Shown in pieces: positions 930-17,026 of a DNA stretch of 64,000 nt (position 1 is the stretch's first letter; each line of letters starts with the position of its first letter). The stretch spans positions 208,456-272,455 of the forward strand of contig OY969576.1 of NCBI GenBank assembly GCA_963701245.1, written 5' to 3'. The notes beneath the pieces were generated by a model. The model was not told the DNA's origin. It worked only from the letters and a program-made list of their open reading frames with translations, and ran no database searches. Position numbers and translations under genes: made by a program. Source of the DNA: an uncultured bacterium. Its GTDB lineage: Bacteria; Patescibacteriota; Saccharimonadia; Saccharimonadales; UBA4665.

Positions 930-1052
930 ATAACCTTGCTTTGATGCCGTAAAAACCAATTAATTCTTCAACTTGTGGACGAGTTGTAATACTACCTTCG
1001 AAGGAGTAGATCATTACAAAAATAATAACATAAAATGATTATAATACAAATA

Positions 1053-1090
1053 CTTGGCTCCCCTTAGTGGGCAAGCTTAGAACTTTTGAC
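1053..1090 (-). repeat. Cassette-boundary repeat, A-type arm
   Basis: CTTGGCTCCCCTTAGTGGGCAAGCTTAGAACTTTTGAC; core CTTGGCTCC plus A arm. Confidence 0.7.
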
Positions 1091-1222
1091 TGTTGTGATT
1101 CAAAGATTGGGCAAGACGTTGCATAGAATCAGCCTGGTGTAGCTCTCTTGCTGCAGCTATTTCCCCGACTACGTCTTCAATTGGAATGAATTTAAAGCTC
1201 ACAAAAAACTAGCACAAAAAAA

Positions 1223-1918
1223 TTATACGCAGTGGATCAAGCCCTCCCATTTATAAGCATCGGACCTCTTCAGGGCACCATTGGCCAATTTGTTGACCAT
1301 TTTGAACTGACTGCGGTACGCAGCCACGGTTGCCATTTTCCCTAGCTGCTGGATGTTATCCAGTGCGACTGTTTCGACGCGAACATTTGAGTTGAGTAAT
1401 CGTTTTAGCTTTTCTACTGACAGTCGTCTAGGCCACTCCTTTAACCTCACTACTGGGAGTGCGTACGGTACGTCCGCATAAAATACGACATTATAGCCTT
1501 TGTCTCGCAGTATAACGCCGGCTTCTCGGACAGAGCAGTGATCTGGATGATTTCGAAAAAGTGTCCCTATTCCCGCCGGTAGGTATAATGACGAGTCCGA
1601 TTGTACCTGGGACTCGATGGCATCTGCAATGGCTATAATGTCACGTTGACAGTCTGCATAGGGAAGGTCAAGGAAGTCAAGGTACCTAATGGTGGTGTTG
1701 GTATCTTTGAGAGCCGCGTCATTCTCTGCTCTGCGGTCATACATGGAATCTTGTGCGTTTGTATATCCTGTTAATAAGTCCCATTTGCTAGGTTCAGGAC
1801 TTTCAGGGATGCCAGCGAAAACCGTGATTGATTCTGAGCCTAGAGCAAGTCGATTGTAGCAACTGAGCGGACCATCATCGATATGAGCAGAGATAATAAC
1901 CTCGTGGGGGGCATTCAT
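1223..1918 (-). CDS. PIG-L/LmbE-family deacetylase-like protein
   Basis: SAHIDDGPLS (AHPDD-like) and HPDH motifs. Start moved to MNAPHEV at 1918. Confidence 0.6.
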   Translation of the reverse strand: MNAPHEVIISAHIDDGPLSCYNRLALGSESITVFAGIPESPEPSKWDLLTGYTNAQDSMYDRRAENDAALKDTNTTIRYLDFLDLPYADCQRDIIAIADAIESQVQSDSSLYLPAGIGTLFRNHPDHCSVREAGVILRDKGYNVVFYADVPYALPVVRLKEWPRRLSVEKLKRLLNSNVRVETVALDNIQQLGKMATVAAYRSQFKMVNKLANGALKRSDAYKWEGLIHCV

Positions 1919-1957
1919 ATAGAGGTATACAATAACACAAAACATGGTAATTAACAA

Positions 1958-1998
1958 GTTTTGACTCCTCTCAGTTGACGGGCTTCGAACTTTTGATG
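1958..1998 (-). repeat. Cassette-boundary repeat, degenerate A-type
   Basis: GTTTTGACTCCTCTCAGTTGACGGGCTTCGAACTTTTGATG aligns to the A consensus. Confidence 0.5.
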
Positions 1999-2042
1999 TG
2001 TTGAAATCTGACGATTATGTACAAATGAAGCTTTGAGATTAT

Positions 2043-2303
2043 TTACGCAACTGTACGCTTTAATTTCTTGAGAACTATCTCATGATCCTTGACTACGTGC
2101 TCAATAATGATTAATCGATCATTAATATCGTTGACGGTTGCATGTACTTGATGTAACTCATGTCGAATAGTGGGTGCATCTTTTACGTATTCCGTGATGG
2201 CCTTTAGTTCATCTTGCAAAACCTCCCCATGCACTTCTTATCGTTTGTCATCGTTTAATGATTGCACGGCGTGGTCTAGTTTAGTCTTATAAATAGGGAT
2301 GAT
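2043..2303 (-). pseudogene. Small coiled-coil protein, paralogue of 8394..8657, with in-frame TAA
   Basis: The 63-aa ORF is about 75% identical to the C-terminal part of the 87-aa protein. Upstream in-frame sequence IIPIYKTKLDHAVQSLNDDKR is followed by a TAA (complement of 2238-2240) where the paralogue reads ERKEV. No ATG precedes it. Confidence 0.55.
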
Positions 2304-2330
2304 TTTCAGTCATTCGATAGTAAACGTCGT

Positions 2331-2364
2331 CCTAGCTCTCCCTAGTGGACGAGCTTAGAAGCTT
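2331..2364 (-). repeat. Cassette-boundary repeat, degenerate A-type
   Basis: CCTAGCTCTCCCTAGTGGACGAGCTTAGAAGCTT. Confidence 0.55.
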
Positions 2365-2692
2365 ACCGATTGAGTCGAGCCGCGATGGCGAAATGCAAGA
2401 AATAACGATCTAAGCTCTGGATAGATTCTTGACTTGCATGCTTATCAGAAATAATTTCTAAGAATTGTTGTTTTGCACGTCTTACTTCTTTTGCTCTTGG
2501 GGATTCTGATTTCCTCAAAATATAGATAGTGGCATTAAATAAATCAGTTGCACGCGCGATAGCCTGGTCCTTAGTCCTTTTGTCGTTAGCTTTAAAAGAT
2601 CGACCTACCTCACTGTAGATATTCCCCATTTGGTCAAATATGCCTAATTTTGCCCAACGTGTTCGGTCGACTGTGTAATGTTTTCTGTTCAT
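2363..2692 (-). CDS. Hypothetical helical protein (downstream gene of a two-gene cassette)
   Basis: 109-aa ORF that overlaps the upstream gene by 4 nt (ATGA-type coupling). Confidence 0.6.
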   Translation of the reverse strand: MNRKHYTVDRTRWAKLGIFDQMGNIYSEVGRSFKANDKRTKDQAIARATDLFNATIYILRKSESPRAKEVRRAKQQFLEIISDKHASQESIQSLDRYFLHFAIAARLNR

Positions 2693-3015
2693 TGCGTGAC
2701 TTTCCGCTTCACAATAGCAGTAATCTCTTCTCGAACGTTTTCATCTTCGATACCTCGTGACCTATTATTTTGCCTCTGACGAATGTTAATCATCGAGTCA
2801 AACTCAATGAACTCATCTGTGCCAAATTTCTCAGGATAAAGATTAATATCCCACAAGTCAGATTGTTTTGACTCCTCTTGGTCAACATGGAGTTCTGCAT
2901 CAACTACAAAAATTTGTTGTTTAATATCTACAACTGCTTTTACTAAATTGCCCAACATATTTTCAGCCATTTGAGTGAGCTCAGCAACAGTTATAGTATC
3001 TACTCTTTTCATCAT
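2689..3015 (-). CDS. DUF5674-like protein
   Basis: MAENMLGNLVKAVVDI...VVDAELHVDQEE...LWDINLYPEKFGTDEFIEFDSMINIR matches my recollection of the DUF5674 family common in CPR genomes. Confidence 0.6.
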   Translation of the reverse strand: MMKRVDTITVAELTQMAENMLGNLVKAVVDIKQQIFVVDAELHVDQEESKQSDLWDINLYPEKFGTDEFIEFDSMINIRQRQNNRSRGIEDENVREEITAIVKRKVTQ

Positions 3016-3030
3016 TTCAATTGTATCAAA

Positions 3031-3106
3031 ACAAAAAAACTTCCTGAGATGTCTTTTAAAGCATAAGCATCTTGGCTCCCCCTAGTGGACGTTCTTCGCA
3101 ACTATA
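3031..3106 (-). repeat. Cassette-boundary repeat (conserved left arm + core + A arm)
   Basis: ACAAAAAAACTTCCTGAGATGTCTTTTAAAGCATAAGCAT-CTTGGCTCC-CCCTAGTGGACGTTCTTCGCAAC. Confidence 0.75.
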
Positions 3107-3142
3107 GTAGTGCTGGCTTCATGATAGTTCTATAGTTAGAGC

Positions 3143-3712
3143 ATGGCCGAAAATAGACGATTAATAGCTGGGCAGATTGCTCCTGACTTCAGTCTAAAAG
3201 ATATTTATGGGAATAAGGTTAGACTGGCAGACTACAAGTATGACAAGCTACTCATTTGTTTTTTTAGATATGCAGGTTGTCCCTGGTGTAACCTGGCTAT
3301 TCACCGGCTTACAATGTCTTACCGTGCCCTAGACGAACTAAATCTCAAAATTATTGCTTTTATTCAGTCAGAACCTGCAAACATTCAGAGATATATATTT
3401 GATCGTCATGATCCACAGCCTCAATTTCCAATAATTGCCGATCCTGACCGTACTGTCTACAATTTGTATGGGGTTAATGACTCGATGTCTGCGGCCGCTA
3501 GATCGCTTGTTAAACTTCCGGACTGGTTGCATGCAAGTTTTGGTAGTAATTTTAAGCAAGGTAAGGTAGACGGAAGCTTAACTCTCGTCCCTGCTCAGTT
3601 CCTTATAGGGCAGAACAGCCACAAAATCTATAAAGTAAATTATGGAGCGGATTATTACAACAGTGCTCCCATAGTTGAGATTATGGATTTTGCACAATTT
3701 GGCGCAGATTAA
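3143..3712 (+). CDS. Peroxiredoxin-like thioredoxin-fold protein (AhpC/TSA family)
   Basis: APDFSLKDIYGNKVRLADY...FFRYAGCPWC motif. Confidence 0.65.
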   Translation: MAENRRLIAGQIAPDFSLKDIYGNKVRLADYKYDKLLICFFRYAGCPWCNLAIHRLTMSYRALDELNLKIIAFIQSEPANIQRYIFDRHDPQPQFPIIADPDRTVYNLYGVNDSMSAAARSLVKLPDWLHASFGSNFKQGKVDGSLTLVPAQFLIGQNSHKIYKVNYGADYYNSAPIVEIMDFAQFGAD

Positions 3713-3880
3713 TGGTAAGACTAAACCAAGACTAAGTTACTTGCTTCTCAGAATCTAACTTCGCTGCCTTACTTTTAGCCGAGCCTGAGTTGCCTTGTAA
3801 AACTACTAGTTTATTATCGTAAAGTTTCATAAATAATAATAGCAAAGTGGAAGTTCTGGAGCTGTCCGCTATCCTCGTTC

Positions 3881-3963
3881 AAAATAAAAAACAGAGACTA
3901 CCTGCCTCTGATGAGTTCGTCGAAACTTGGCTCCACCTAGTGGACGAGCTTCGAACTTTTGAG
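3881..3963 (-). repeat. Cassette-boundary repeat (A-run, hairpin, core, A arm)
   Basis: Hairpin CAGAG..CTCTG at 3892-3910, then CTTGGCTCCACCTAGTGGACGAGCTTCGAACTTTTGAG at 3926-3963. Confidence 0.75.
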
Positions 3964-3978
3964 AATTCTGAATTAGTC

Positions 3979-4218
3979 TCAAACAGTGAGCTTGTAACCA
4001 ATTTTGTCTGCTAGTTCATGAGTCCACTTGTCTAAACGATCAAGTTGGTGACCTATTACTAGTCTTTCCTCTTCATTTATTTCCTGCTTTTTCGGTAATT
4101 CATCAATCATGTTGTCAAGTCTATCAAATCTCAATGTTTGTTTCTCAAATTTTTCGTCAATCTTATCAAATCGTACAGTCATGTATTTAAACAGCTTTGT
4201 GAATTCATCTTGGCTCAT
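3979..4218 (-). CDS. Small coiled-coil protein
   Basis: 79-aa ORF rich in D/E/K heptad-like sequence. Occupies a single cassette. Confidence 0.6.
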   Translation of the reverse strand: MSQDEFTKLFKYMTVRFDKIDEKFEKQTLRFDRLDNMIDELPKKQEINEEERLVIGHQLDRLDKWTHELADKIGYKLTV

Positions 4219-4262
4219 GACACTATTTTAACATATTTACGTCATTTCAATTTTATGTCTTT

Positions 4263-4333
4263 AAATCAAAAAGACCTCTAATAAATAGAGGTCAAAATGC
4301 TTATGGCTCAGTTGACTTTGACGAAATGGAACC
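4263..4333 (-). repeat. Cassette-boundary repeat, degenerate
   Basis: Hairpin AGACCTCTA/TAGAGGTC at 4272-4293, then CTTATGGCTCAGTTGACTTTGACGAAATGG. Confidence 0.45.
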
Positions 4334-4665: not shown

Positions 4666-4705
4666 GAAATAATTGTAGCATCAATACCCTTATATCTACT
4701 TTTCT

Positions 4706-4747
4706 GTATAAGCATCTGGCTCCCCCTCTGGTGGTCGACCTTTTCGG
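4706..4747 (-). repeat. Cassette-boundary repeat, A-type variant
   Basis: TATAAGCAT-CTGGCTCC-CCCTCTGGTGGTCGACCTTTTCGG. Confidence 0.55.
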
Positions 4748-5290
4748 CTATGTATTTATTGAATCTACAACAAACTTGACTGCATCAATGAGATGATGTG
4801 CGCAAAACACTGCATGGGGAGAAACGACCTTTTTATTGGTTGCAGTTTTGACCAAGATGCCTCCCTTACAATGTGCATTCAATGCTGCTTGTATATCCGA
4901 ATCACTGTCACCTATCATATAAGTCCGTGTGAGATTTAGTTCAAAGTCTTTTGCTGCTTGTAGCAACATATTTGGTCCAGATTTACGCCAATCAGTTGCA
5001 CTTGGTCCAGCTTTCTCTCCATTCATATATGTTTTTAATACTTTTACGCCGCTCGGTTCTAATTTACGTAATATTACGTCGTGAATACGCCAGAAATCAT
5101 CCTCTGTAATACGCCCTTCTGCGATGCCAGCCTGATTAGTAACAAAAACTACCGAAAAATCATTAGTTGCAAGATAATTAAGTGCTTCAATAGAGTCCGA
5201 AAATAATTCTATTTTTTCAATAGAATCAACACGCTCATCTTTCGGGTCAACGATTACAGTACCATCTCGGTCAAGGATTACTACGTTCAT
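4748..5290 (-). CDS. HAD-IIIA family phosphatase (GmhB-like)
   Basis: VVILDRDGTV, VTNQAGIA and IGDSDSDIQAA motifs. Start set at MNVVILD. Confidence 0.7.
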   Translation of the reverse strand: MNVVILDRDGTVIVDPKDERVDSIEKIELFSDSIEALNYLATNDFSVVFVTNQAGIAEGRITEDDFWRIHDVILRKLEPSGVKVLKTYMNGEKAGPSATDWRKSGPNMLLQAAKDFELNLTRTYMIGDSDSDIQAALNAHCKGGILVKTATNKKVVSPHAVFCAHHLIDAVKFVVDSINT

Positions 5291-5300
5291 GTCAATACTA

Positions 5301-5389
5301 TAACAAAACAAAAAGATCTCCGAAGAAGTCTTTTAAGCATAAGCGTCTTGGCTCGGCAAATGATTTTTATTCCAAACTTTTTCAATCAG
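5301..5389 (-). repeat. Cassette-boundary repeat (left arm + core + truncated B1 arm)
   Basis: AACAAAACAAAAAGATCTCCGAAGAAGTCTTTTAAGCATAAGCGT-CTTGGCTC-GGCAAATGATTTTTATTCCAAACTTTTT. Confidence 0.75.
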
Positions 5390-6155
5390 AGAACAGACGA
5401 GAATTACTCTCGGTCCACCGTGCCCGCTTTTCAACTTCATCAAGATCACCATTCTCAACCCATTCGACTTGCGGCTGAACGCCTCGACTCGCAAGATATG
5501 CCTCGTGTCTACCGACAGATCTTTGCATTGCGGCAACTTTAGTCGCGACATTTGGTATAGTTGGGGTGCCATAGGCCTCAAAAAAGACGCTAATCCGATG
5601 TTGTCTATTAGGTACTTTCGGAAAGTGGTGCCACTTGATCGTTGTTTCATCGTCCCGAAATGGGGCAGAATACTCAAGCCCATACAAAATATCTTCTTCG
5701 GGGACAGCTGGATGTACAAGATCCCAGTCAATTATTCCTACAGGATCACTACCTCGCCAAACAATGTTCCATGGGCCAAAATCTCCATGGCAAACAATCT
5801 CTCCCGGCTTAAGGTATACAGCTCCGGTTGACCACTCTAAGTTCTCGTGTGGTTTATATTCTGCAATTGCGTCATGGTATGAACGTAATAACTTAGCAAA
5901 TTTTCGGAGGCCTTCATCACTAACGATTCTCTCCCATCCGGCTGCACCGGACTCGCCTTCAACGTAACTGAGGACTTCCCGGCCATCCGAGTCATTTTCG
6001 AATACCCGGGGAGAATATGGGAAATCTAGTGATTTAAGGTACTTAAGTAAGTCATGAACGGCGGGCGTCCACCAATGAGTCGGGCGATGGACTTTATCGC
6101 CAATACGTACGATGGATCGTTTGTCATCAGTAGTTAGTTGTTCTTCATCCACCAA
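5382..6155 (-). CDS. Aminoglycoside-phosphotransferase (APH)-family kinase
   Basis: HGDFGPWNIVW and IIDWD catalytic-loop motifs. Confidence 0.7.
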   Translation of the reverse strand: MVDEEQLTTDDKRSIVRIGDKVHRPTHWWTPAVHDLLKYLKSLDFPYSPRVFENDSDGREVLSYVEGESGAAGWERIVSDEGLRKFAKLLRSYHDAIAEYKPHENLEWSTGAVYLKPGEIVCHGDFGPWNIVWRGSDPVGIIDWDLVHPAVPEEDILYGLEYSAPFRDDETTIKWHHFPKVPNRQHRISVFFEAYGTPTIPNVATKVAAMQRSVGRHEAYLASRGVQPQVEWVENGDLDEVEKRARWTESNSRLFSD

Positions 6156-6173: not shown

Positions 6174-7208
6174 AATTGAGGTAAAGGAATGGATATATCA
6201 GGTCGAGGCTCTAAACATATAGGACGTCTAAGTTAATAGTAGCATTCTCATATCCGGGCAGACTCTGTAAGTATTCGAGTGGTGTCATCATACCGAGTGA
6301 GGTATGTGGGCGGTATGTATTGTAGCGTTCGCAGTCTTCCAACAGGAATCGCTTAAGGTCCACGAAATTATGATCTATTTTGAAATGTTTCCGTAGGTAT
6401 TTGTCTGAGCCATGGCTGCGCTCAATAAACCCATTGAGTTGTGGTGAGCTGGCTTTAATTAAGCGATGCTCAATACCATGGCTGGTCAGCCATATGGTTA
6501 CTGGGTGAGTTATCTTATCCTGTGGCCACTGGGTGTAGGTGAACTCAGTACCATTGTCTGTCTGGATGGTTTGAAAGCTGAAAGCTGGCTCAAAGAATCT
6601 GACGGCATGCTCCAGGAAGTCGATGGTATTTCGGGGATGGTAATCATAGTACAGGCGCTTGTATTTGAGCCTGGTGGCACAATCTATGATGTCGTATTGG
6701 TAGGCGGCTCGTTTCCAGTGCTTCACGTCCATCTGACCACGCTCACCGGGTACATATTGCTGGTCAGATAGTTTACGTGAACGTTTGTTGACCTTTCTCT
6801 TAGCGAGCAATTCAGCTCGCCTAAGAACGTTATTAACACCTTTATGAGATATGGTGATGCCATAATCCCGCTCAAGGATCCTGGATAGGCCGTGCTTACC
6901 GTAGCCATACTCCAATCTCAGGCCAACGATGAGACCAGCTAATTCCTCATCAATTATGCGAGGGTTATCTTTTGGTATTCTGGGCTTGTCGTAAAGTGCT
7001 GTTACTTTCTTATCTCCGGCAATCCAACGTTTATGCCAATAGTAGTACTCACTCCTTGCTATTCCAAACCATTTACAAGCTTCAGTAACACTACCTAATT
7101 CTTCTGCCTTCCTAAACCAAGCAAGTCTAATCCGAGCTCCGTAGACTAAGAGCTGTTTCTGGGTCATAGTTCTGGTACTCACTTTCATTACTCCTTTCTA
7201 TCTTAATT
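6174..7208 (-). mobile_element. IS481/IS3-superfamily-like insertion sequence
   Basis: Single rve-type transposase ORF. Imperfect terminal repeats AATTGAGGTAAAGGAAT (6174-) and the complement of AATTAAGATAGAAAGGAGT (-7208). Boundaries are tentative. Confidence 0.55.
6211..7188 (-). CDS. Integrase-core (rve) DDE transposase, IS481-like
   Basis: N-terminal HTH region, then GERGQMDVKH...IQTDNGTEF...NGFIERSH, typical of retroviral-integrase-type transposases. Confidence 0.8.
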   Translation of the reverse strand: MKVSTRTMTQKQLLVYGARIRLAWFRKAEELGSVTEACKWFGIARSEYYYWHKRWIAGDKKVTALYDKPRIPKDNPRIIDEELAGLIVGLRLEYGYGKHGLSRILERDYGITISHKGVNNVLRRAELLAKRKVNKRSRKLSDQQYVPGERGQMDVKHWKRAAYQYDIIDCATRLKYKRLYYDYHPRNTIDFLEHAVRFFEPAFSFQTIQTDNGTEFTYTQWPQDKITHPVTIWLTSHGIEHRLIKASSPQLNGFIERSHGSDKYLRKHFKIDHNFVDLKRFLLEDCERYNTYRPHTSLGMMTPLEYLQSLPGYENATINLDVLYV

Positions 7209-8392
7209 ACTCACCTTACGCATCACTCCCACTTTCTTGAGTCCTGGGGCATACTAAAAGCAGTCAACCTTTCATCAAGGATGTTGCTATGCCAAAACAA
7301 AAACAATCCAAGCCCGTCAACGTACCAATGCTTGACCTGTATTCTGACTATCTCATCAGCTCATTCGGATTGACCACGGCAACTGGTATGTCGGCCGCCC
7401 TGGACGGGTCAGTCGGCCATGACGACGTCACCCGTTTCCTGTCTGCCCGGGAATATACCAACAAAGACCTCTGGAAACTGGTTAAGCCAACGATCCGGCA
7501 GATTGAAACTGACGACGGCATACTGGCTTTGGATGACACCATTGAAGAGAAGGCCTACACCGACGAAAACGACATCATTGCCTGGCACTATGACCACGTC
7601 TTCAACCGGAATGTGAAGGGCGTCAATATTCTCAATATGCTCTACCATAACGACCAGGCAACGGTACCCTTGGGGTTTTGCCTGGTCAAGAAAGACGTAC
7701 CTTTCACTGACCCGAAGACCGGCAAACAAAAACGCAAGTCCTCGGCCACCAAGAACGAACAGGCCCGTGAGCTCATCGGGGCAGCCATCCAAAACCAGGT
7801 GAAGTTTCGCTACTGCCTTGCTGACAGTTGGTTTTCCTCACAGGAAAACATGGAGTTCATCGTTGGCAAGGGCAAACACTTCATCTTTGCCCTCAAGAGT
7901 AATCGTACGTTTGCAAAAAGTAAGGAGGATAAACTACGAGGAGTATTCCACGCAGTCGAATCGCTGGCCTGGGAAGAAAACACTACCAAGACAGGGTACC
8001 TCAAAGGCATGAATATGACGGTGCGTATCACCCGTCAAATCTTCACAAACGGAGATGACAGTCAGGGTGTTTTGTATCTCGCTACCAGTGATCTGACGCT
8101 AGGACATACCGACATAACCACGATCTACCAAAAACGGTGGAAAGTGGAAGAGTACCACAAGTCCGTAAAGTCCAACCTCGGGCTGGCCAAGTCACCGACC
8201 AAACGAGTGAAGACACAAAGTAACCACTTCTTTGCGGCAACCTATGCCTACCATAAGCTGGAACGACTGGCGAAAGCGAGCAATCTGAACCACTTTGCCT
8301 TAAAGGCAAAGCTATACCTCAAAGCTCAGCAAGCCAGTTTGGCTGAACTTCAGGTACTCAAAGAAGCTGGAGGTTTTGCGTAAGGTGAGTTA
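7209..8392 (+). mobile_element. IS4-superfamily insertion sequence, copy 2 (complete)
   Basis: Terminal inverted repeats ACTCACCTTACGCA (7209-) and TGCGTAAGGTGAGT (-8390). About 1.18 kb with one transposase gene. Confidence 0.85.
7289..8383 (+). CDS. DDE transposase, IS4 superfamily
   Basis: 364 aa with the Y(2)R(3)E(6)K signature. Identical to 43184..44278. Confidence 0.9.
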   Translation: MPKQKQSKPVNVPMLDLYSDYLISSFGLTTATGMSAALDGSVGHDDVTRFLSAREYTNKDLWKLVKPTIRQIETDDGILALDDTIEEKAYTDENDIIAWHYDHVFNRNVKGVNILNMLYHNDQATVPLGFCLVKKDVPFTDPKTGKQKRKSSATKNEQARELIGAAIQNQVKFRYCLADSWFSSQENMEFIVGKGKHFIFALKSNRTFAKSKEDKLRGVFHAVESLAWEENTTKTGYLKGMNMTVRITRQIFTNGDDSQGVLYLATSDLTLGHTDITTIYQKRWKVEEYHKSVKSNLGLAKSPTKRVKTQSNHFFAATYAYHKLERLAKASNLNHFALKAKLYLKAQQASLAELQVLKEAGGFA

Positions 8393-8393
8393 C

Positions 8394-8660: not shown

Positions 8661-8822
8661 TTATTAACAAACAAAAAAACTTCCAAAAAAGTCTTTTAAT
8701 CATAAGCATCTTGGCTCGGCAAATGGTTTTTATTCCAAACTTTTGAAGAGCTGGACCGTTCTAAAAACAAGGAGCTGGAGACCCAGCAAATACGACAACT
8801 TATCGATAAACCCGATAATTAA
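8661..8822 (-). repeat. Cassette-boundary repeat (left arm + core + full B1 arm)
   Basis: TTAACAAACAAAAAAACTTCCAAAAAAGTCTTTTAATCATAAGCAT-CTTGGCTC-GGCAAATGGTTTTTATTCCAAACTTTTGAAGAGCTGG... The arm stays open as WLGKWFLFQTFEELD...QQIRQLIDKPDN*. Confidence 0.8.
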
Positions 8823-9076
8823 CCGTAGAGTTGGCTATGCGTGCCCACTATATCGAAGATTACTTCTTCTACGCGTTGTAGGTAGAGTGCTCGAACATCA
8901 CCGGTAATATCTATACTTCGGTACTCTTTCCACTTCCCTTTTAACTGATGGTTACGAAGCGTTGGATGGAGCGGGTTTTCGGCAAACGTTTCTATTCTTT
9001 CAAGTAACTTCTGTCGCACTTTAGGGGTTAACTTTTTCGCTTGAGCGATGAAGCTCTTGGAATATGAAATTTTCAT
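8819..9076 (-). CDS. RelE/YafQ-family type II toxin
   Basis: 85 aa with HPTLRNHQLKGKWKEYRSIDITGDVRALY. Overlaps the upstream antitoxin gene by 4 nt. Confidence 0.7.
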   Translation of the reverse strand: MKISYSKSFIAQAKKLTPKVRQKLLERIETFAENPLHPTLRNHQLKGKWKEYRSIDITGDVRALYLQRVEEVIFDIVGTHSQLYG

Positions 9077-9436: not shown

Positions 9437-9520
9437 CAAGAATGCACCTCAATTAAAGAGGTGCATTCTAAGTTTTCTGACGTTGCCCCCCCTAGTGGAT
9501 GAACTTCGCAACTTCTCAGT
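9437..9520 (-). repeat. Cassette-boundary repeat (hairpin + diverged core + A arm)
   Basis: Hairpin GAATGCACCTC/GAGGTGCATTC at 9440-9468, then CTGACGTTGCCCCCCCTAGTGGATGAACTTCGCAACTTCTCAG. Confidence 0.65.
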
Positions 9521-9842
9521 GGATACTGAAGACTTTACCGCCGAACCAATACTTATTCATCTCACGTAAGAACTTTTCGCTTATAGGGTAACCAGAAGCA
9601 TCACCAAGCACAGCGTCTATTTCACAATATGGACACATGCAGAATTCAAGCTTAGTGTCATCATCTCGTGCGCTAAACAACCACTCCTTAATTTGGTCTG
9701 GCTTAAAAGTGTGAAGGCAATAGTAACAGCCGCACATGTCACTTTTCCTTATCTTGGTGGCATAGTTTTCGTCAAGGCGGTGTGCTAATTGTATGTCTTT
9801 TGGAATTTTTGACATTAGATCATCATTCTTTACATTATTCAT
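9516..9842 (-). CDS. Cysteine-rich (CxC..CxxC / CxC..CxxC) putative zinc-binding protein
   Basis: 108 aa with CGCYYC...CMCPYC spacing. No family recognised. Confidence 0.5.
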   Translation of the reverse strand: MNNVKNDDLMSKIPKDIQLAHRLDENYATKIRKSDMCGCYYCLHTFKPDQIKEWLFSARDDDTKLEFCMCPYCEIDAVLGDASGYPISEKFLREMNKYWFGGKVFSIH

Positions 9843-9850
9843 TCTTAAAT

Positions 9851-10031
9851 TATAACAAAAATGACCCCAAAACAGAGGTCATTTAAACATAAGCACCTTG
9901 GCTCGGCAACTGGTTCCGGAATATAACCTTTATGCAAGATAAGGAAGTTAACATCAATGATCTTCGCCAGCTCATAGATACCAGTGAACATGCACCAGGA
10001 TGTTAGCCTAGTGGATGTGCTCTGCGGCTAC
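9851..10031 (-). repeat. Cassette-boundary repeat (left arm + core + B2 arm + A-like tail)
   Basis: Hairpin ATGACC/GGTCAT at 9861-9882, CATAAGCAC-CTTGGCTC-GGCAACTGGTTCCGGAATATAACC..., then CCTAGTGGATGTGCTCTGCGG at 10007-10027. Confidence 0.8.
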
Positions 10032-10620: not shown

Positions 10621-10772
10621 ACCAACAAAAAACAGAGGCAAATAACCTCTGCTAATTTGAGTTCTAATCTTGGCTCGCCGTTTCCTTCTGGAATATAACC
10701 ATTGCAAAAGAAAGTGAGGCAGACGTCAAAGAAGGGCGTGACCTGATTTGTGGAGACAGTGAGGAGGAGTAA
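10621..10772 (-). repeat. Cassette-boundary repeat (hairpin + core + diverged B2 arm)
   Basis: Hairpin CAGAGG/CCTCTG at 10633-10651, then CTTGGCTCGCCGTTTCCTTCTGGAATATAACC... The arm is open as WLAVSFWNITIAKESEADVKEGRDLICGDSEEE*. Confidence 0.65.
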
Positions 10773-10899
10773 AAATACAGAACTGAAGCCCTCCGACGAA
10801 GTTCAAATATAGTCCACGAACATCTTGATCCCTAAACGACGAGAGCAAGCTATAATGCCTATGGTTGTATATATCGACATAATCTAGCAAAATAGACTA

Positions 10900-12393: not shown

Positions 12394-12529
12394 GACGAAA
12401 GTGAATTAGAAGCTATTTTTATGTGTAGCTGCGAAACAGATTCACCCGTTCTATATGTATTCAACATAATCAAACCAAAAATTCCCCATTTTACAGGGGG
12501 AACTAATGATGTAGTGAAAACTTTTCTTA

Positions 12530-12620
12530 CTTGGCGCGGCAAATGGTTCCGGAATACAATCTTTACGTCAGAAAATGAAATCAATGTCAAGGAAGTCCGG
12601 CAACTAATCGATAATAATCA
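12530..12620 (-). repeat. Cassette-boundary repeat (variant core + B2 arm)
   Basis: CTTGGCGCGGCAAATGGTTCCGGAATACAATC... The arm reads WRGKWFRNTIFTSENEINVKEVRQLIDNNQ. Confidence 0.7.
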
Positions 12621-13121
12621 GGAGGGCTTTGGGTCGGAGGCGCTATTAAGCAGTGTCCTATACTCAAGATCTGAGAGGCTGACTAACTTGCTGTCTCGCC
12701 CTAAGTCAGATTCGGTTATCTCCACACCGGACCAGTCAGGAGGCAAAAAATGAATGGCTTCTTCGGTGCTACGAAACTCGACTTCCAATCGTATCAGCCC
12801 TTCAAAGCGACCATGATAAACCTTGATTGTAGTGTTCTTAGTGTCCGGGACTACGTAACTGTCACGTTCGATGCTGGCAATAGCGTGCTGGCGAAGTTCA
12901 TTGAACTTTTCAATGGTAATTGGAGTGACCTTTTTAGAACTAGAAAGCCGATCATGTGTAACTTTTTGCTCAGAGAAATACTTATCGCCTTTTCGTTGAA
13001 TTCTCAACTCTTCACCTGGCCCTACATTCAAGAAATATCTCTCATAGATAACTTTGGAGGTGAGATCAATGCTTGAAGGAATAGAGCTTAGTAGAAATTT
13101 GCGTTCTATCTCGTTGGCCAT
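12618..13121 (-). CDS. CYTH-domain (triphosphate tunnel metalloenzyme) protein
   Basis: N-terminal EIERKFLL (ExExK) signature and about 165 aa. Confidence 0.7.
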   Translation of the reverse strand: MANEIERKFLLSSIPSSIDLTSKVIYERYFLNVGPGEELRIQRKGDKYFSEQKVTHDRLSSSKKVTPITIEKFNELRQHAIASIERDSYVVPDTKNTTIKVYHGRFEGLIRLEVEFRSTEEAIHFLPPDWSGVEITESDLGRDSKLVSLSDLEYRTLLNSASDPKPS

Positions 13122-13147
13122 ATTGATATTTTACAGTACGCCTATAA

Positions 13148-13314
13148 ACAAAAACGCCAACCACAAAGTTGACGTATTGTACAATAACTGGCTCGGCAAA
13201 CTGTTTTTATTCCAAACTTTTGAAGAGCTAGATAGCATCAAAGATAAAGAGGCAGAGATACAGCAGATCCGTCAGCTTCTAGATGAGGGTCAGAAAGAGG
13301 AACAACTATGTTAA
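13148..13314 (-). repeat. Cassette-boundary repeat (hairpin + variant core + full B1 arm)
   Basis: AACAAAAACGCCAAC..GTTGACGT hairpin, then CTGGCTC-GGCAAACTGTTTTTATTCCAAACTTTTGAAGAGCTAG... The arm reads WLGKLFLFQTFEELD...IQQIRQLLDEG...*. Confidence 0.75.
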
Positions 13315-13794
13315 CGCAATTCCTCCGCCGATCTACAAATACTTCCCCCGACCTGCTTGAATCAAAACTGTACGACGAGAAAACGTTCTACCCTGCTTTC
13401 CTCAATGACCTAAACAATTGCGGAAGCGAACTCATCATTGAATGCCCGTTCGTTACTCGCAGACGGCTGCAAAGCTTATTGCCAACGTTGCAGAAGCTTA
13501 AAGCGCGCAAGGTGCGAATTATCATCAACACCAAAGATCCCCATGAGCTAGACGAGGAACGGCGAGAAGAAGCATACCATGCGGTTGCGTCACTGCAACA
13601 CAAGGGTATCCAAGTCATATTATACCCATGGACATCACAGAAAGCTGGCCATCATTGACCGATCAATACTTTACGAGGGTTCGCTCAATATTCTTTCTCA
13701 GAACAGGAGCACAGAGATTATGCGAAGGACCGAGTCGGTGCAACTTGCGTGGCAGATGGCGAGGTTTGTTGGGATAGACGGGTTTATCGCCTAA
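13308..13794 (+). pseudogene. PLD/HKD-superfamily nuclease-like gene, frameshifted
   Basis: Two overlapping frames (13308..13658 and 13579..13794). The HKD motif HRKLAIIDRSILYEGSLN lies in the second frame, and the shift is near 13620. Confidence 0.6.
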
Positions 13795-13815
13795 AATCTC
13801 TAGCAGGAAAGTGTA

Positions 13816-14082
13816 CTAACTGATCTGGGTGAATCGTTTCAGCTTCTTACCATCTACTTCAATTTCTTCAAGCCAGCTCGATACCGGACGTATCCATGTC
13901 AGCTTGTCATCGTACTCAGCTTGATATATGACGCATGGTTCCATATCTTCTTCTCGCAAGGCAATGCCAATGACTTTGTAGCTTAGCTGCTTATAGTGTA
14001 AATATCGAGCGCCAACAGAGACTTGTTTTGCTGCTTCGGCAAGCCGGATGGAAAGCTGGGGTTGACCTTCTTTGTCATGCAT
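13816..14082 (-). CDS. DUF1653-like small protein
   Basis: ARYLHYKQLSYKVIGIALREEDMEPCVIYQAEY...WIRPVSSW pattern. Start set at MHDKEG, because the longer ORF would overlap the upstream kinase gene. Confidence 0.6.
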   Translation of the reverse strand: MHDKEGQPQLSIRLAEAAKQVSVGARYLHYKQLSYKVIGIALREEDMEPCVIYQAEYDDKLTWIRPVSSWLEEIEVDGKKLKRFTQIS

Positions 14083-14098
14083 ACGGCAAGATACTCCT

Positions 14099-14677
14099 TT
14101 AATCTTTGTATAACACGTCTGCTGAGTTTGCAGGATTAAATAATACAACGAACTCTTTCTCTTTTGGCACCCAAACCTCGTCCCATTTCTGGATATGGGC
14201 TTCGACATCGTATTTGTCGCTCGGCTTGTTAGCTCGGTCGCGAGCCTTTCCTTGGTCGGTAGCTTCTTCAAGTGAACGATCAATCCAGACCGTCAGCTTG
14301 TAGTAGTATTTGAGATCAGGCCGCAGGATTCTTACCCCTTCGACAATGACTAATGAGGGCAGCGGCTGACTAATCCAATCCTTTGTTTCGTTTTTCTCCC
14401 AGTTATACCACTGATAATGTAAATCCTTACCGACACTTACATCCTTTAACACACCCTCAAATCGATCCCAATCATATCCACCTTTCCAACCCTCACCTTC
14501 GCCGTGATTGACGAGAAAGTTATCAAGTTGGAGGATGGTAGAATCGGGAAAACGAGCTTTTAACTTTTCTGCAAGTGTCGTTTTGCCAGAACCACCGAAA
14601 CCAGACACCGCAACAACAGTCGGACGCTTTGTTTCAAGGAGACCCTGCACTTTAACGGCAAGATCTTCAAAGATCAT
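14099..14677 (-). CDS. Uridine-kinase-like P-loop kinase
   Basis: VAVSGFGGSGKTTLAEKL Walker A motif. Overlaps the upstream gene by 11 nt. Confidence 0.6.
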   Translation of the reverse strand: MIFEDLAVKVQGLLETKRPTVVAVSGFGGSGKTTLAEKLKARFPDSTILQLDNFLVNHGEGEGWKGGYDWDRFEGVLKDVSVGKDLHYQWYNWEKNETKDWISQPLPSLVIVEGVRILRPDLKYYYKLTVWIDRSLEEATDQGKARDRANKPSDKYDVEAHIQKWDEVWVPKEKEFVVLFNPANSADVLYKD

Positions 14678-15374
14678 TCATTACCTCATATTCCAGTCGC
14701 AGGTAAGAGTCTTCTAGCGGCTTGGCGTTCTTAAACTTTAGTGGCCGGATTTTGGTCAAGTCTTCGGTCGTTCGGAGTGGATCGCCGTCAACAAGTGTCG
14801 CCGTGTTTCGGCCGCCTACCAGACATGGCGCGACAACAATTAGGACTTGATCTATAAGTCCTGCTCTCAGCAGTATCGCATTCAGTTCTCCGCCGGATTG
14901 AATAGTCATACGCTCGGCACCGTACTCTGTTTTGAGCTTAACAAAGAGGTCGGCAAAGTCTATGACCTCGTCATATTGCACTATTGCTACATTGGGATAC
15001 TTTTCTTGTAGGCTGTAAACTGGATGATCACTGTCCGTGGTAACGACAATGAGCTTACCGAACTTATGTGCCAAAAACTCAACGCCATGTGCCGTTAAGT
15101 GGGGCTTATTATCTACCACCACAAAGGTCATTGGAATTTGCTTTATACCTTCAAGCGAGTCGGTATTGGCGCCCACCTTAGCCATTACCCGGCCGCTAAT
15201 AAATGAAACTGGGTCAGTCTGTTGCTCTATTTCGTAGTATTGGTGGAGACCCTCTTTGACGCTTGGGATGTTCGGTAAGTCTTTATCAAAGTCACGTTCA
15301 TCGGTGTCGCCGGTCGAGATTTTACCGTCGAGCGATTGAAGAAGGAAGAGGGTGGTATAGGGTCGGTTACTCAT
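14667..15374 (-). CDS. RibD C-terminal-domain/dihydrofolate-reductase-family protein
   Basis: PYTTLFLLQSLDGKISTGD N-terminus and the GGR...L motif typical of RibD_C. Confidence 0.65.
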   Translation of the reverse strand: MSNRPYTTLFLLQSLDGKISTGDTDERDFDKDLPNIPSVKEGLHQYYEIEQQTDPVSFISGRVMAKVGANTDSLEGIKQIPMTFVVVDNKPHLTAHGVEFLAHKFGKLIVVTTDSDHPVYSLQEKYPNVAIVQYDEVIDFADLFVKLKTEYGAERMTIQSGGELNAILLRAGLIDQVLIVVAPCLVGGRNTATLVDGDPLRTTEDLTKIRPLKFKNAKPLEDSYLRLEYEVMNDL

Positions 15375-16024
15375 TATCGATTCGTCGGGTACATCGTTAC
15401 GTCCCGTAGGTAATATGTTGCGTGGCTATCTGCTTGCCCTCGGACAAATGCGGCTAGGTCTTCAGCACTAATGGCATCAGGGTTTGCCCCATGAGTCGCG
15501 ATATCGCTTGGGTAAAGATTCGTTATCTGGTACTGCTCAGGTTTGAACTCTTGCTGTAATGACTGGAAGAAATGCATTTCAGCAGTCTTTGCTGCACCGT
15601 ACGCCGAGTTGTTCTTGTGTGCAGCTAAGGCGCTACTGGAAATGATATTGATAATCCGGGCATTCGAAAAGTAAGTAGCGAGGCCATGCGTCATGTAGAC
15701 GGCTGAGAAGTAGCTGCTTCTCATTTGCTGCTCATAATCTTCCGGTTTCATATCTGTAAGACTGCCACTCACATAGCCGCCTGCATTATTGACTAAGCAT
15801 ATTTCAGCATCTGGGTGTTCATCGCGCAGTTGTTTCCAGAACGTTGCACAAGCGCCAGCATCACTCGCATCGAATTGTCTATGCGATACGTTTTTAGGAT
15901 AGTCATCTGGTTGTTCCGATCGGCCCGTGCCTATAGATATCCATCCGTTTCCGGCAAATTCATTTATAAGCACAAGGCCAAGCCCGCGACTGGCACCGGT
16001 AATAACTGCGACTCTATCTGGCAT
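15374..16024 (-). CDS. Short-chain dehydrogenase/reductase (SDR)
   Basis: VITGASRGLG cofactor motif, NNAG, and YGAAK catalytic motif. Confidence 0.8.
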   Translation of the reverse strand: MPDRVAVITGASRGLGLVLINEFAGNGWISIGTGRSEQPDDYPKNVSHRQFDASDAGACATFWKQLRDEHPDAEICLVNNAGGYVSGSLTDMKPEDYEQQMRSSYFSAVYMTHGLATYFSNARIINIISSSALAAHKNNSAYGAAKTAEMHFFQSLQQEFKPEQYQITNLYPSDIATHGANPDAISAEDLAAFVRGQADSHATYYLRDVTMYPTNR

Positions 16025-16038
16025 ATTAATGATCCTTC

Positions 16039-16443
16039 CTATTCAGGTCTCTTAGTTGCTATAGACGGGTGGTGTACGAATTCGTAGACATTGCCATCGG
16101 GGCCACGGAAGTGCGCCCATTTCGTACCACCCGAGCCTTCACCGATACCTTCCGGAAATACCTCATAGCTATTGGCTTTGAGCCAGGACATAGCGTTATA
16201 GAAATCTTCTACCTCGAAGCCAGTTACCGCTCCTTCAAGTGGATAGAATTGTTTGTCTGGAGTACCCTCAGCGTGTAGCTCGAAGCGTTGGCCTTGCGGT
16301 GTCGTGAAAGCGACAAAGTCTCCGTCATCATAGGTCTTCTCGTAGCCAAGGACAGACTCGGCGAATTGCTTCATTTCTTCAATGTGTTTGGTGCGGATGC
16401 CGACGTAGGTTATGCCGGGGGAGTGAAGATTTGGCGGATTCAT
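16039..16443 (-). CDS. VOC/glyoxalase-bleomycin-resistance-family protein
   Basis: 134 aa with two beta-alpha-beta-beta-beta-like halves (GIRTKHIEE..., HFRGPDGNVYEF). Confidence 0.65.
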   Translation of the reverse strand: MNPPNLHSPGITYVGIRTKHIEEMKQFAESVLGYEKTYDDGDFVAFTTPQGQRFELHAEGTPDKQFYPLEGAVTGFEVEDFYNAMSWLKANSYEVFPEGIGEGSGGTKWAHFRGPDGNVYEFVHHPSIATKRPE

Positions 16444-16527
16444 CCCTCCTGACCCAAGGTGTTAGAGTCGCCGTAGCAAAGAATGACTGTCGCGTTGGGG
16501 TTCATTGGTTAATGATATCAGATTATA

Positions 16528-16552
16528 GAAGTGGATTCGAACTTTTGTAACA
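16528..16552 (-). repeat. Core-less A-arm remnant / tRNA T-arm-like fragment
   Basis: AGAAGTGGATTCGAACTTTTGTAAC matches both the A arm (..AGTGGA..TTCGAACTTTTGA) and the tRNA T-arm complement (ACTGGATTCGAACC). Confidence 0.5.
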
Positions 16553-16560
16553 GGGCTAGA

Positions 16561-16598
16561 AACAAAAACAGATCGGAAAACCAAACTTTTCTGATCTG
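16561..16598 (-). terminator. Rho-independent terminator of the tRNA-Asn gene
   Basis: Minus strand reads CAGATC-loop-GATCTG followed by TTTTTGTT, 10 nt after the CCA end. Confidence 0.7.
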
Positions 16599-16608
16599 TT
16601 ATTTTTCT

Positions 16609-17026
16609 TGGCTCCGGGGACTGGATTCGAACCAGCGACCTAGTGGTTACACGTATTCCCTATTTTCATAGTGGCGTGGACTATCTCATCATCCAAATCA
16701 TATGGATGCAGGGCGCTAATGAGAGATTATTGTTAGGCTCACTCTCTAGTCTCTGAACCTTCCAGAACCCTTTAACCTAGTTCTGGCTTGGCTGCGGATT
16801 ACCTTGATCAATATGATTGTAGGCTTCCCGCAATTCACCCTGTTTTCACTGTTTAATTTATTAAACAGGCTGCACTTAAAATCTTGAAAGTTTTGGACTG
16901 TAGTTTACATTTGTTAATTTAATCCAAAAACTTCAACGACGTTGCATAAAATAGATAATTTCATCTAAAAAATTGCATATAATTTGTGTCGTACAGCCAC
17001 CCGCTCTACCGCTGAGCTACCCCGGA
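16609..17026 (-). tRNA. tRNA-Asn(GUU) interrupted by a group I intron (exons 16993-17026 and 16609-16649)
   Basis: The joined exons give a 75-nt cloverleaf, UCCGGGG-UA-GCUC-AGCGGUA-GAGC-G-GGUGG-CUGUUAA-CCACU-AGGUC-GCUGG-UUCGAAU-CCAGU-CCCCGGA-G-CCA. U1-A72 and G73 fit bacterial tRNA-Asn. Confidence 0.8.
16650..16992 (-). ncRNA. Group I intron (tRNA-type, no ORF)
   Basis: Minus strand contains CCGCAGCCAAGCC (16785-16797), GGUUCAGAGACUAG (16746-16759) and GAGAUAGUCC (16678-16687). These match the conserved group I core elements as I recall them from the Tetrahymena and Anabaena introns. The 5' exon ends in U and the intron ends in G. Confidence 0.75.

Follow-up and report, generated by a model that had tools for sequence, protein, structure and literature searches.

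The DNA analysed here is a window of 64,000 nucleotides (nt) from an uncultured bacterium of the Saccharimonadales (contig OY969576.1, positions 208,456 to 272,455). It contains, next to a tRNA-Asn gene, a 16.6-kb stretch in which small modules of unrelated genes are separated by a repeat whose core equals the 3' end of that tRNA. In our view, this stretch is likely to be an array that grew by tandem accretion, the enzyme being a large serine recombinase (LSR) for which the tRNA-Asn 3' end serves as attB site. A first-pass annotation of the window had proposed serial site-specific insertion at this tRNA end or, as an alternative, an integron-like platform. The first of these proposals agrees with the state of the locus in relatives, where we found a naive tRNA, a recombinase-bearing element or a cassette array, and with the finding that differing families of left and right arms are joined exactly at the core. 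Hereafter, L numbers up to L014 denote the smpB loci of relatives, L084-L109 denote 26 metagenome loci, L110-L114 denote further loci with an LSR and P numbers denote LSR proteins.

The gene beside the tRNA encodes SmpB, the best relatives of which belong to Candidatus Saccharimonadales (TM7, candidate phyla radiation (CPR); 71% identity). In the window, smpB lies on one side of the tRNA and the cassettes lie on the other, and the pairing of smpB with tRNA-Asn is kept in most relatives. No tRNA was found in the window by ARAGORN with default settings because a 343-nt group I intron splits the gene. With the option -i, a tRNA-Asn(GTT) was detected at 16609-17026 on the minus strand with the intron in the anticodon loop, and the intron was recognized as Rfam RF00028 at 16657-16890(-) with 89 bits. 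Save for this intron, the tRNA-Asn is intact. It ends with GAGCCA, which constitutes the att core, and its T-arm represents the B-type half-site. The core at 16607 is indeed the complement of a genuine tRNA-Asn 3' end, as had been noted on first reading.

The core CTTGGCTC has ten matches in the window compared to 1.46 expected, and none of 100 shuffled sequences reached ten. Nine copies are co-oriented on the plus strand between 1053 and 16614 (1053, 3071, 3926, 4209, 5347, 8710, 9897, 10669 and 16607), and the single copy on the minus strand is located at 54612. This count contains all eight exact positions reported by the first-pass annotation, from 1053 to 16607. The ninth, at 4209-4216, was missing from its list; it lies within the start codons (MSQD) of an open reading frame (ORF) at 3979-4218(-), has no arm of any family described below and is probably a chance match. 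Alignment of the copies yielded three families of arms, namely the A arm of ~45 nt and the B arm of 100-125 nt (subtypes B1 and B2) to the right of the core and the L1 arm of ~55 nt to its left. The two right-arm types seen previously, the second of them with two subtypes, were thus recovered by alignment as well as by nhmmer profiles. These arm profiles retrieved all 14 previously noted junctions, and the diverged cores at 1958/1960, 2331, 4300, 4716, 9478/9481, 12530 and 13188 proved to be true members, each with an A, B or L1 arm that scores in nhmmer. The following features were defined, with the junctions given in window coordinates on the plus strand:

1053..1098: junction 1, core 1055-1060 and A arm (nhmmer E=3.6e-10); the array probably extends further left, past a copy of an insertion sequence (IS) at the window edge.
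1961..2005: junction 2, degenerate core TGACTC 1962-1967 and A arm (nhmmer E=5.5e-8).
2332..2378: junction 3, degenerate core TAGCTC 2333-2338 and A arm (nhmmer E=2.8e-9).
3021..3116: junction 4, L1 arm 3021-3078, core 3073-3078, A arm 3071-3116.
3892..3972: junction 5, L2 hairpin 3892-3910, core 3928-3933, A arm 3926-3972 (nhmmer E=1.3e-11).
4256..4310: junction 6, L1-like arm, hairpin 4273-4293, core GGCTCA 4305-4310 (nhmmer E=1e-6); the weakest member, with a right arm that fits no named type.
4671..4763: junction 7, L1-like arm 4671-4721, core 4717-4722, diverged A-like arm 4717-4763 (nhmmer E=5e-6 and 1e-5).
5299..5399: junction 8, L1 arm 5299-5354, core 5349-5354, truncated B1 arm 5347-5399 (nhmmer).
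8664..8834: junction 9, L1 arm 8664-8717, core 8712-8717, B1 arm 8710-8834 (nhmmer); heads the relE/relB cassette (8819-9390, minus strand).
9439..9522: junction 10, hairpin 9439-9469, degenerate core TTGCCC 9483-9488, A arm 9482-9522 (nhmmer E=7e-8).
9846..10008: junction 11, L1 arm 9846-9904, hairpin 9859-9884, core 9899-9904, B2 arm 9897-10008.
10631..10778: junction 12, L2 hairpin 10631-10653, core 10671-10676, B2 arm 10669-10778 (nhmmer E=8.8e-22).
12484..12640: junction 13, hairpin 12484-12498, core TGGCGC 12532-12537, B2 arm 12530-12640 (nhmmer E=1.5e-24).
13154..13309: junction 14, hairpin 13154-13175, core TGGCTC 13189-13194, B1 arm 13188-13309 (nhmmer, B profile, E=2.9e-22).
16528..16608: L3 left arm by the tRNA, terminator hairpin 16567-16600; includes what had first been listed as a core-less A copy.
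16609..17026 (minus strand): tRNA-Asn(GTT), 3' exon ~16609-16649, 343-nt group I intron.
13308..13800 (plus strand): PLDc_2 (HKD nuclease-like) gene, start overlapping the B-arm stop, frameshift near 13610.
6211..8383: IS genes in the array, rve-type 6211-7188 (minus strand) and DDE_Tnp_1 7289-8383 (plus strand), outside the cassette system.

Arms were seen in the combinations L1/A, L1/B1, L1/B2, L2/A, L2/B2, L3/B, L3/A and L3/tRNA. They are always joined at the core, and unrelated left and right families have only 6-8 nt in common where they meet. At the window junctions, identity with the tRNA does not extend beyond the core, and longer true tRNA 3' fragments were seen only in L008 and L012. 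The arm profiles of the window also match independent loci in other metagenomes with E values down to 1e-25. A terminator-like hairpin accompanies every junction, as would be the case if the repeat were an ordinary intergenic terminator or repetitive extragenic palindromic (REP)-like family that is spread over the genome and is merely dense here. We give this explanation very little credence: the profiles found no significant A, B or L arm copy in the other 47 kb of the window (17-64 kb), no arm copies are present on the smpB side of the tRNA in L011, L086 and L113, and the arms are made up of LSR tail and half-site sequences, as set out in the following paragraphs.

When ORFs downstream of smpB in the relatives were screened against Pfam, two proteins with the domains Resolvase, Recombinase and Zn_ribbon_recom were detected. 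Proteins of this composition are large serine recombinases. The LSR gene converges on the tRNA in L007, in L004 (as a remnant) and in L113. In L007, its reading frame crosses the tRNA terminator and the core into the antisense strand of the tRNA and ends with ...KKPFDTMAFCSENGN-WLRGLDSNQRPSG and a stop codon. In L008, the LSR stop codon is ~20 nt away from an A-like arm whose core is degenerate. An apparent LSR remnant beside the tRNA of L008 was discarded as it is accounted for by the antisense part of the tRNA alone. A database search with the L007 LSR returned 1,446 homologues at E<=1e-20, and in 104 of the best 120 of these the C-terminus consists of W-L followed by the antisense tRNA T-arm. 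Other members carry the arms of the window instead. A-type tails (WLPxVD.LRN) are found in P0104, which ends WLPIVDVLRNS..., and in P0126, which ends WLPLVDALRNY...; the A arm of junction 4, translated in frame, reads WLPLVDVLRNYSS and is comparable to both. P0099 ends WLGRRDLFQTFPDELD...VQEIRQILDEKSKEEPKC, which is the B1 peptide (..FQTF..IRQILD...C), and its C-terminal tail is 53% identical to window positions 13186-13311 (tblastn E=7e-7).

The same continuity is present at the DNA level. An LSR 3' end, TGGCTC and an A arm are contiguous in L112 and L114, and an LSR 3' end, TGGCTG, a B arm and a PLD gene are contiguous in L110 and L111. Altogether, an LSR adjoins the att site in L007, L004 (remnant), L008, L113, L110-L112 and L114 and in no case in the window. 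In the LSR gene, the conserved codons for ...KKPFDTMAF... consist of an A-run and a hairpin (AAAAAGCCATTCGATACAATGGCTTTTT; L007 15681-15740, L113 11380-11440, L112 2590-2640). On the opposite strand, this hairpin is an intrinsic terminator right behind the tRNA, and the integrase C-terminus would therefore also serve as the tRNA terminator after integration. Directly upstream of the LSR with the intact A-type site, L112 encodes a rolling-circle Rep protein (REP_ORF2-G2P, 254-961). This gene suggests that some of these elements are small integrative plasmids; the contig has a length of 5.9 kb and shows no terminal overlap. Collectively, the comparisons support the view that the enzyme missing from the window array would be a member of this LSR family, with the A and B arms as its putative att half-sites.

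The spacing of motifs within the arms is in accordance with such a role. After TGGCTC, the sequence TTCGAAC, which is the T-loop in antisense, starts at a distance of 11 nt in the tRNA arm and of 16 nt in six of the seven A arms of the window as well as in the A arms of L112, L113 and L114. The B1 arms have the related TTCCAAAC, with its end at +23 compared to +18 in the tRNA. In the sites of serine integrases, the motif bound by the zinc ribbon domain has been reported to be 5 bp nearer to the centre in attB compared to attP (Rutherford et al. 2013, PMC3783163). In the light of this rule, the outward shift by 5 bp indicates that the resemblance of the A arm to the tRNA T-arm, described as an echo on first reading, reflects the same protein-binding motif at P-type spacing. 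The echo itself was borne out as a shared candidate recombinase-binding motif. The intact site of L112 has an inverted copy, TTGCAAT, 12 nt to the left of TGGCTC. With this copy, the centre of the dyad falls on the TC of TGGCTC, which would thus be the crossover dinucleotide. All left arms and all LSR 3' ends supply TGGC (GCCA on the tRNA strand, i.e. discriminator plus CCA) beside the crossover. The core exceeds a dinucleotide in length because TGGC must come with every incoming element if the tRNA 3' end is to be restored.

A complete element was found in L113, the smpB side of which has the gene order of the window (GH42-like, GT2, AAA_33, CobA, glutaredoxin, ATP synthase). It occupies 6.3 kb at the tRNA-Asn, and its genes end in the LSR. 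At attR (position 5138), a terminator hairpin is followed by CTTGGCTC and the A arm CCGCTAGTGGAC..CGCAAC, and at attL the LSR 3' end is followed by TTTGGCTC (containing TGGCTC) and the tRNA-Asn 3' end. Joined on paper, the LSR end of attL and the A arm of attR give the intact L112 site, and the hairpin of attR and the tRNA give the naive sites of L002 and L005. Both joins reproduce observed sites, which is the reciprocal-hybrid signature of site-specific integration. Further hairpin-core junctions, which are not separated by an LSR, follow distal to attR at 3811 and near 105. Hence an LSR element and, beyond it, LSR-less modules coexist in one array.

Translation of the B arms from the core onwards, in the LSR frame, gives WLGK(W/L)F..F...E....IRQLID...C and a stop codon; the B1 arm of junction 14 gives WLGKLFLFQTFEELDSIKDKEAEIQQIRQLLDEGQKEEQLC and a stop. 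Substitutions are distributed over the codon positions as 0.40/0.31/0.55, and the indel between B1 and B2 comprises 15 nt. Together with in-frame stops just upstream of the core, which leave the peptide without a start in the array, this indicates that the B arm is coding sequence in the LSR frame. The B-arm peptide had been expected to retrieve long proteins, but a database search returned only ORFs of 42-71 aa with the same peptide after unrelated N-termini. The link to LSRs was found only by searching with the LSR itself. The idea that L3, core and B arm form a gene for a 70-aa protein was dismissed: L3 copies differ by single-base indels, and L1 has an in-frame stop just upstream of the core.

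A 160-aa PLDc_2 (HKD) gene, the start of which overlaps the B-arm stop, is present in L084 (two copies), L085, L086 and another 20 metagenome loci. The PLD DNA of the window is 76-88% identical to intact 160-aa copies in L084, L086, L089 and others, and in view of the frameshift near 13610 the window copy is either a pseudogene or affected by a sequencing error. In L110 (94-2141) and L111 (80-2052), LSR, tail (B arm) and PLD form an operon, with PLD starting within the stop of the LSR tail. As judged from these sequences, the B arm is the predicted LSR tail plus the leader of the coupled PLD gene. B-type integration would cut the operon at the core, so that tail and PLD would come to lie at the element's far end, uncoupled from the LSR. 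The PLD protein might also mobilize the modules itself, either by homing-type cleavage at the core or as a new phosphohistidine recombinase, with spread by repair or strand transfer. It is the only protein that is repeatedly linked to junctions, L3-core-B-PLD is a frequent contiguous unit of ~0.8 kb, and L084 holds two copies. We nevertheless regard such a role as highly improbable. No PLDc_2 gene is among the called genes of the A-type element in L113, and the A-type array of L011 has no B arm. Moreover, the window copy is frameshifted, and a sequence search of the PDB with the PLD protein found no solved relative. As the gene is always located downstream of the LSR tail and translationally coupled to it, it rather appears as an accessory gene of B-type LSR elements.

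Taken together, these findings lead to the following model for the array. The core TGGCTC (GAGCCA on the tRNA strand, discriminator plus CCA) would contain the crossover point, which the dyad centre of L112 would place at the dinucleotide TC. The right arms A and B represent P-type half-sites of incoming elements, the T-arm side of the tRNA represents the B-type half-site, and the left arms L1, L2 and L3 are terminator hairpins that stand in for the tRNA's own terminator. In complete elements, the LSR lies against the core with its last codons crossing it, so that the LSR tail reads into the antisense tRNA after integration and into an A or B arm in the unrecombined state. Integration would yield the order tRNA-core-[LSR ... 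cargo ... P arm]-core-old terminator, and repeated events would push older modules away from the tRNA. Window modules lack an LSR, which implies that they are satellites moved in trans by an LSR located elsewhere or elements that have lost their LSR end. They presumably depend on an LSR encoded elsewhere.

The modules of the window resemble each other in layout, consisting of terminator, promoter, one to five genes and P arm, with sizes of 0.4-3.4 kb. Hairpins with a T-run on the minus strand occur at 3910-3892, 4293-4273, 9884-9859, 10653-10631, 12498-12484 and 13175-13154, and two-way hairpins at 9439-9469 and 16567-16600. The number of terminator-like sites amounts to 28, compared to 14.8 +/- 3.6 expected. 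The hairpins that had been described to the left of the cores are therefore real in the sense that terminator-like minus-strand sites lie directly there. Promoter-like sites follow further along the minus strand, for example TTGACA-18-TATACT before relB and GTTACA-18-TATAAT (16551-16522, minus strand) ahead of a glyoxalase operon, inside the L3 arm. Hairpins with T-runs together with promoters make the cassettes self-contained transcription units. Their genes are mostly on the minus strand, like the tRNA. Pfam identified DUF5674, AhpC/TSA, HAD, APH, YafQ/RelB, two PRK-like kinases, DUF1653, RibD_C, SDR and glyoxalase among the cargo, with weak matches for PIG-L and Homoserine_dh. This agrees with the mixture of unrelated functions first read from the translations, the PIG-L and Homoserine_dh assignments being the weak ones; a CYTH protein named there found no Pfam match at E<=0.01. 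Public gene calls on the same sequence (L082) place four overlapping plus-strand ORFs over the B arms at 12421-13314 and omit the 167-aa ORF at 12618-13121(-), which starts with MANEIERKFLL and has the CYTH-like ExExK motif. Junction-derived ORFs seem to mislead gene callers here.

Many small, mostly co-oriented, unrelated modules, toxin-antitoxin pairs among them, and a repeat with a short invariant core are also what an integron-like platform would offer, with an IntI-type tyrosine recombinase outside the window, promoterless cassettes, attC-like sites and a tRNA-derived attI. However, a phmmer search seeded with XerD found no tyrosine recombinase in the window, in the 14 loci of relatives or in the 26 metagenome loci, and the enzyme present at the site in relatives is a serine recombinase. 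Furthermore, the junction core is TGGCTC and not GTTRRRY, the arms are asymmetric, non-palindromic half-sites and not R''-L''/L'-R' palindromes, and the modules have their own terminators and promoters. Hence we conclude that an integron is a most unlikely basis for the array. With neither an IntI-type recombinase nor an attC-type site, the integron proposed in the first-pass annotation serves as an analogy only. Its statement that the window holds no integrase or recombinase gene proved correct: Pfam and phmmer searches with LSR and XerD seeds on all six-frame ORFs detected no recombinase in the window besides DDE/rve transposases. One IS is present in three copies (1-920, 7289-8383 and 43184-44278; DDE_Tnp_1/DDE_5, transposase of the first at 66-920), of which positions 1-300 are identical to 7464-7763. 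Two of the four transposase genes are adjacent within the array, and one IS copy forms the left edge of the window.

In the relatives, the locus was found in various states. L002, L005, L009 and L014 have a naive tRNA with nothing more than a terminator. In L011, at least 12 A-type junctions with the core GAGCCAAG directly follow the tRNA-Asn and run off the locus. A true tRNA 3' fragment is present 0.8-1.4 kb downstream of the tRNA in L012 and L008, followed in L012 by an L1-type arm. The functional tRNA-Asn of L012 (11205-11279) has the acceptor stem TCCGGCT/AGCCGGA, which differs from the fragment ..CCAGTCCCCGGAGCCA at 12040-12087, 0.8 kb downstream, indicating that the fragment was imported with a module and not derived from the resident gene. 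No cassette genes in common were detected when the window array was compared by tblastx with the loci of the 14 relatives, so content is hypervariable while the junction architecture is conserved. Exact-protein look-ups of cassette genes matched only short contigs of the ERR11523669 sample and no other strain, and the short-read contigs of ERR11523669 break at the IS copies and at the tRNA. Introns at the equivalent position of tRNA-Asn were seen in the window (16650-16992, minus strand), and in two other Saccharimonadales, L006 (10729-11051, 248 nt) and L014 (10519-10826, 232 nt); most relatives have none. Bacterial tRNA group I introns are known mainly from cyanobacterial tRNA-Leu and tRNA-fMet, alpha-proteobacterial tRNA-Arg and Azoarcus tRNA-Ile. 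A cyanobacterial source of the window, to which such an intron could point, was dismissed, given that HIP1 sites are absent and that the relatives of its SmpB are Saccharimonadales.

A, B, L1 and L3 arms are co-oriented in the metagenome loci L084-L109 and occur there in many different combinations. The ~85-nt L3 arm of the window recurs in L084, L085, L086, L087, L089, L093, L094 and L102 (E values of 1e-16 to 1e-25), often directly before core, B arm and PLD. In L086, B-PLD is followed by threonyl-tRNA synthetase and RNase J and then by L3 and tRNA-Asn. The window relBE module (8712-9392) is 81% identical to L084 6545-7225, which originates from another organism. The homology begins exactly at TGGCTC, and the left arms (L1 in the window, L3 in L084) are unrelated. 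Further common modules were found between L085 and L089 (89%) and between L012 and L085 (89%). Genes for a class II aminoacyl-tRNA synthetase (tRNA-synt_2b and HGTP_anticodon) and RNase J lie between two cores in L084 (13563-17284) and L086 (772-4493) and are either trapped housekeeping genes or extra copies carried as cargo. Other cargo in L084 (4355-6417) and L085 (2593-3390 and 6660-7043) comprises two Mtd_N proteins, of the target-protein type of diversity-generating retroelements, Fic/VbhA pairs and a CdiA_C toxin domain. The related arrays are rich in conflict and defence genes.

Several observations weigh against accretion by an LSR. The window and ~150 kb of metagenome arrays with A, B and L arms yielded neither an LSR gene nor an LSR remnant, and so the link to the LSR rests on the relatives and on the arm sequences. 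A Pfam screen of the metagenome arrays showed no recombinase among the families listed, and phmmer gave the same result. Viral contigs contained no relatives of the LSR query and no match to the B-arm pattern; three chance matches to the A-arm pattern had no LSR. The window shows ~14 consecutive attR-like junctions (terminator-core-P arm) with no attL or LSR between them. As a strict attP x attB reaction gives one attR per attB, such a series needs either a relaxed left half-site or the use of attL as a pseudo-attB with loss of the LSR. Neither the left arms L1, L2 and L3 nor the native terminators contain a clear LSR-binding motif, and the left half-site seems to be weakly specified. A profile of LSR 3' ends showed no similarity to the left arms, and LSR remnants are accordingly not detectable in these arms. 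Shared cassettes have unrelated terminator hairpins in the 40-80 nt beside the next core (window 8712-9480 and L084 6545-7297; L012 12077-12649 and L085 6541-7094), which simple core-to-core exchange of cassettes does not predict. P arm, genes and promoter are kept in the same two pairs, so the hairpin segment acts as a piece that can be exchanged on its own. Finally, neither a circular cassette nor an empty-site variant was found; near-identical metagenome copies are collinear and contigs lack terminal overlaps.

Some of these points could also be due to a variable island that is kept mainly by homologous recombination after natural transformation, with the conserved terminators, promoters and arms as short homology anchors and the LSRs only as historical seeds of the att remnants. 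Saccharibacteria are naturally transformable. The independent exchange of hairpin segments and cassette bodies, the lack of an LSR in the window and in the arm-rich metagenome arrays, and a series of exclusively attR-like junctions, which are not serial products of canonical LSR chemistry, all fit this explanation. On the other hand, unrelated arms meet at 6-8 nt, too short a segment for RecA-type exchange, the left boundary of the relBE cassette coincides exactly with TGGCTC, and P-type spacing is kept in six of the seven A arms, which suggests continued selection as recombinase sites. We therefore think it unlikely that homologous recombination is mainly responsible for the array and favour accretion by the LSR. 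Nonetheless, the hairpin that is not inherited with the cassette body in the two shared cassettes indicates that some homologous recombination or hairpin turnover also acts.

Under accretion by the LSR, the attR series may have arisen by two routes. An LSR-less circle (P arm-core-L arm) could be accepted as attP with its left half-site loosely read. Alternatively, elements could integrate into attL as a pseudo-attB, with later loss of the LSR end; the P arm-core-LSR junctions in L008, L110, L112 and L114 could be tandems formed in this way. A more far-reaching possibility, which we put forward tentatively and rate as less probable than not by some distance, is that the LSR-less modules form a true cassette system, moved in trans at the tRNA-Asn 3' end as a serine-recombinase counterpart of the integron. 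If so, the LSR would tolerate almost any left half-site, and Saccharibacteria and other CPR bacteria would possess a dedicated platform for gene capture. Integration of B-type elements would then also silence the PLD nuclease gene, which is coupled with the tail of the integrase.

CPR genomes are tiny and their gain of accessory genes is little understood. The smpB-tRNA-Asn locus appears as a dedicated hotspot that gathers toxin-antitoxin, detoxification, kinase and nuclease genes, with a content that is nearly wholly different between related species. With more than 1,400 members, the LSR family is coherent, its attB sites would be predictable (tRNA 3' end) and its attP sites could be read from the 3' end of the integrase gene. 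Pairs of attP and attB should thus be easy to derive for CPR bacteria, and they may help to build genetic tools for organisms in which manipulation is difficult. The system also makes it testable whether serine integrases can run an integron-like cassette economy. Its economy of sequence is unusual: the last codons of the integrase double as the tRNA terminator hairpin, and integration would rewrite the tail and uncouple the PLD gene.

The literature searched contains no description of this system in Saccharibacteria or Patescibacteria and none of an LSR ORF that crosses its own attP. The first-pass annotation had not recognized a described system, which holds for Saccharibacteria as far as this literature goes, whereas the general kind, tandem accretion at an att site like that of the staphylococcal cassette chromosome (SCC), is known. 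Among tyrosine recombinase systems, the cis-mobilizable elements (CIMEs), accretion of integrative and conjugative elements (ICEs) or integrative and mobilizable elements (IMEs) and the tycheposons of Prochlorococcus involve long segments of tRNA identity. They share with the array the tandem build-up at one att site, units without an integrase and partial tRNA repeats at the boundaries. The array differs from them by an identity of 6-8 nt and by serine-integrase half-sites; neither a tyrosine integrase nor tRNA repeats of ~20-60 nt, the hallmarks of tyrosine-type tRNA islands, are found at the window junctions. The tyrosine integrases of the Myxococcus phage Mx8 (intP/intX) and of the archaeal SSV1 type, known for 'gene capture', have genes that span their own attP, and C-terminal fragments beside tRNA genes mark past insertions. 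Here as there, integration alters or splits the 3' end of the integrase ORF. In our case, however, the enzyme is a serine recombinase, only ~13-40 C-terminal codons change and a PLD gene is uncoupled.

Integrons likewise collect small, unrelated, mostly co-oriented cassettes, rich in toxin-antitoxin genes and hypervariable between relatives, at a fixed insertion point, but the array is set apart by a serine recombinase in place of IntI, by the lack of attC hairpins, by promoters and terminators of its own and by the tRNA anchor. The integrases of Listeria A118/LI, phiC31, Bxb1 and SPbeta (SprA) have the same domains, Resolvase, Recombinase and Zn_ribbon_recom, and act at short sites with identity in a small core. 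Serine integrases of phages and ICEs also resemble the Saccharimonadales family in the P- and B-type half-sites with a motif displaced by 5 bp and in the recombination on paper of attL and attR of L113 into the attP of L112 and a naive attB. They differ in that serial attR-like junctions and LSR-less mini-modules are not predicted by strict attP x attB recombination; moreover, left half-sites are poorly conserved here, attP lies inside the integrase ORF and no directionality factor was identified.

In SCC and SCCmec of staphylococci, the LSRs CcrAB and CcrC insert at the 3' end of rlmH/orfX. Both there and here, the LSR target is the 3' end of a housekeeping gene that is conserved, and this end is restored by the incoming site. 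Units stand in tandem between directly repeated copies of a short core, and many of these units have no recombinase gene and are presumably moved in trans. The target in the CPR host is a tRNA and not a protein gene, the recombinase ORF crosses the att core, and the modules are much smaller (0.4-3.4 kb) and have their own terminator and promoter. The likeness consists in layout and LSR domains. According to our best reading, the behaviour of the array would be closest to that of SCC composite islands, and it also resembles accretion of the CIME type.

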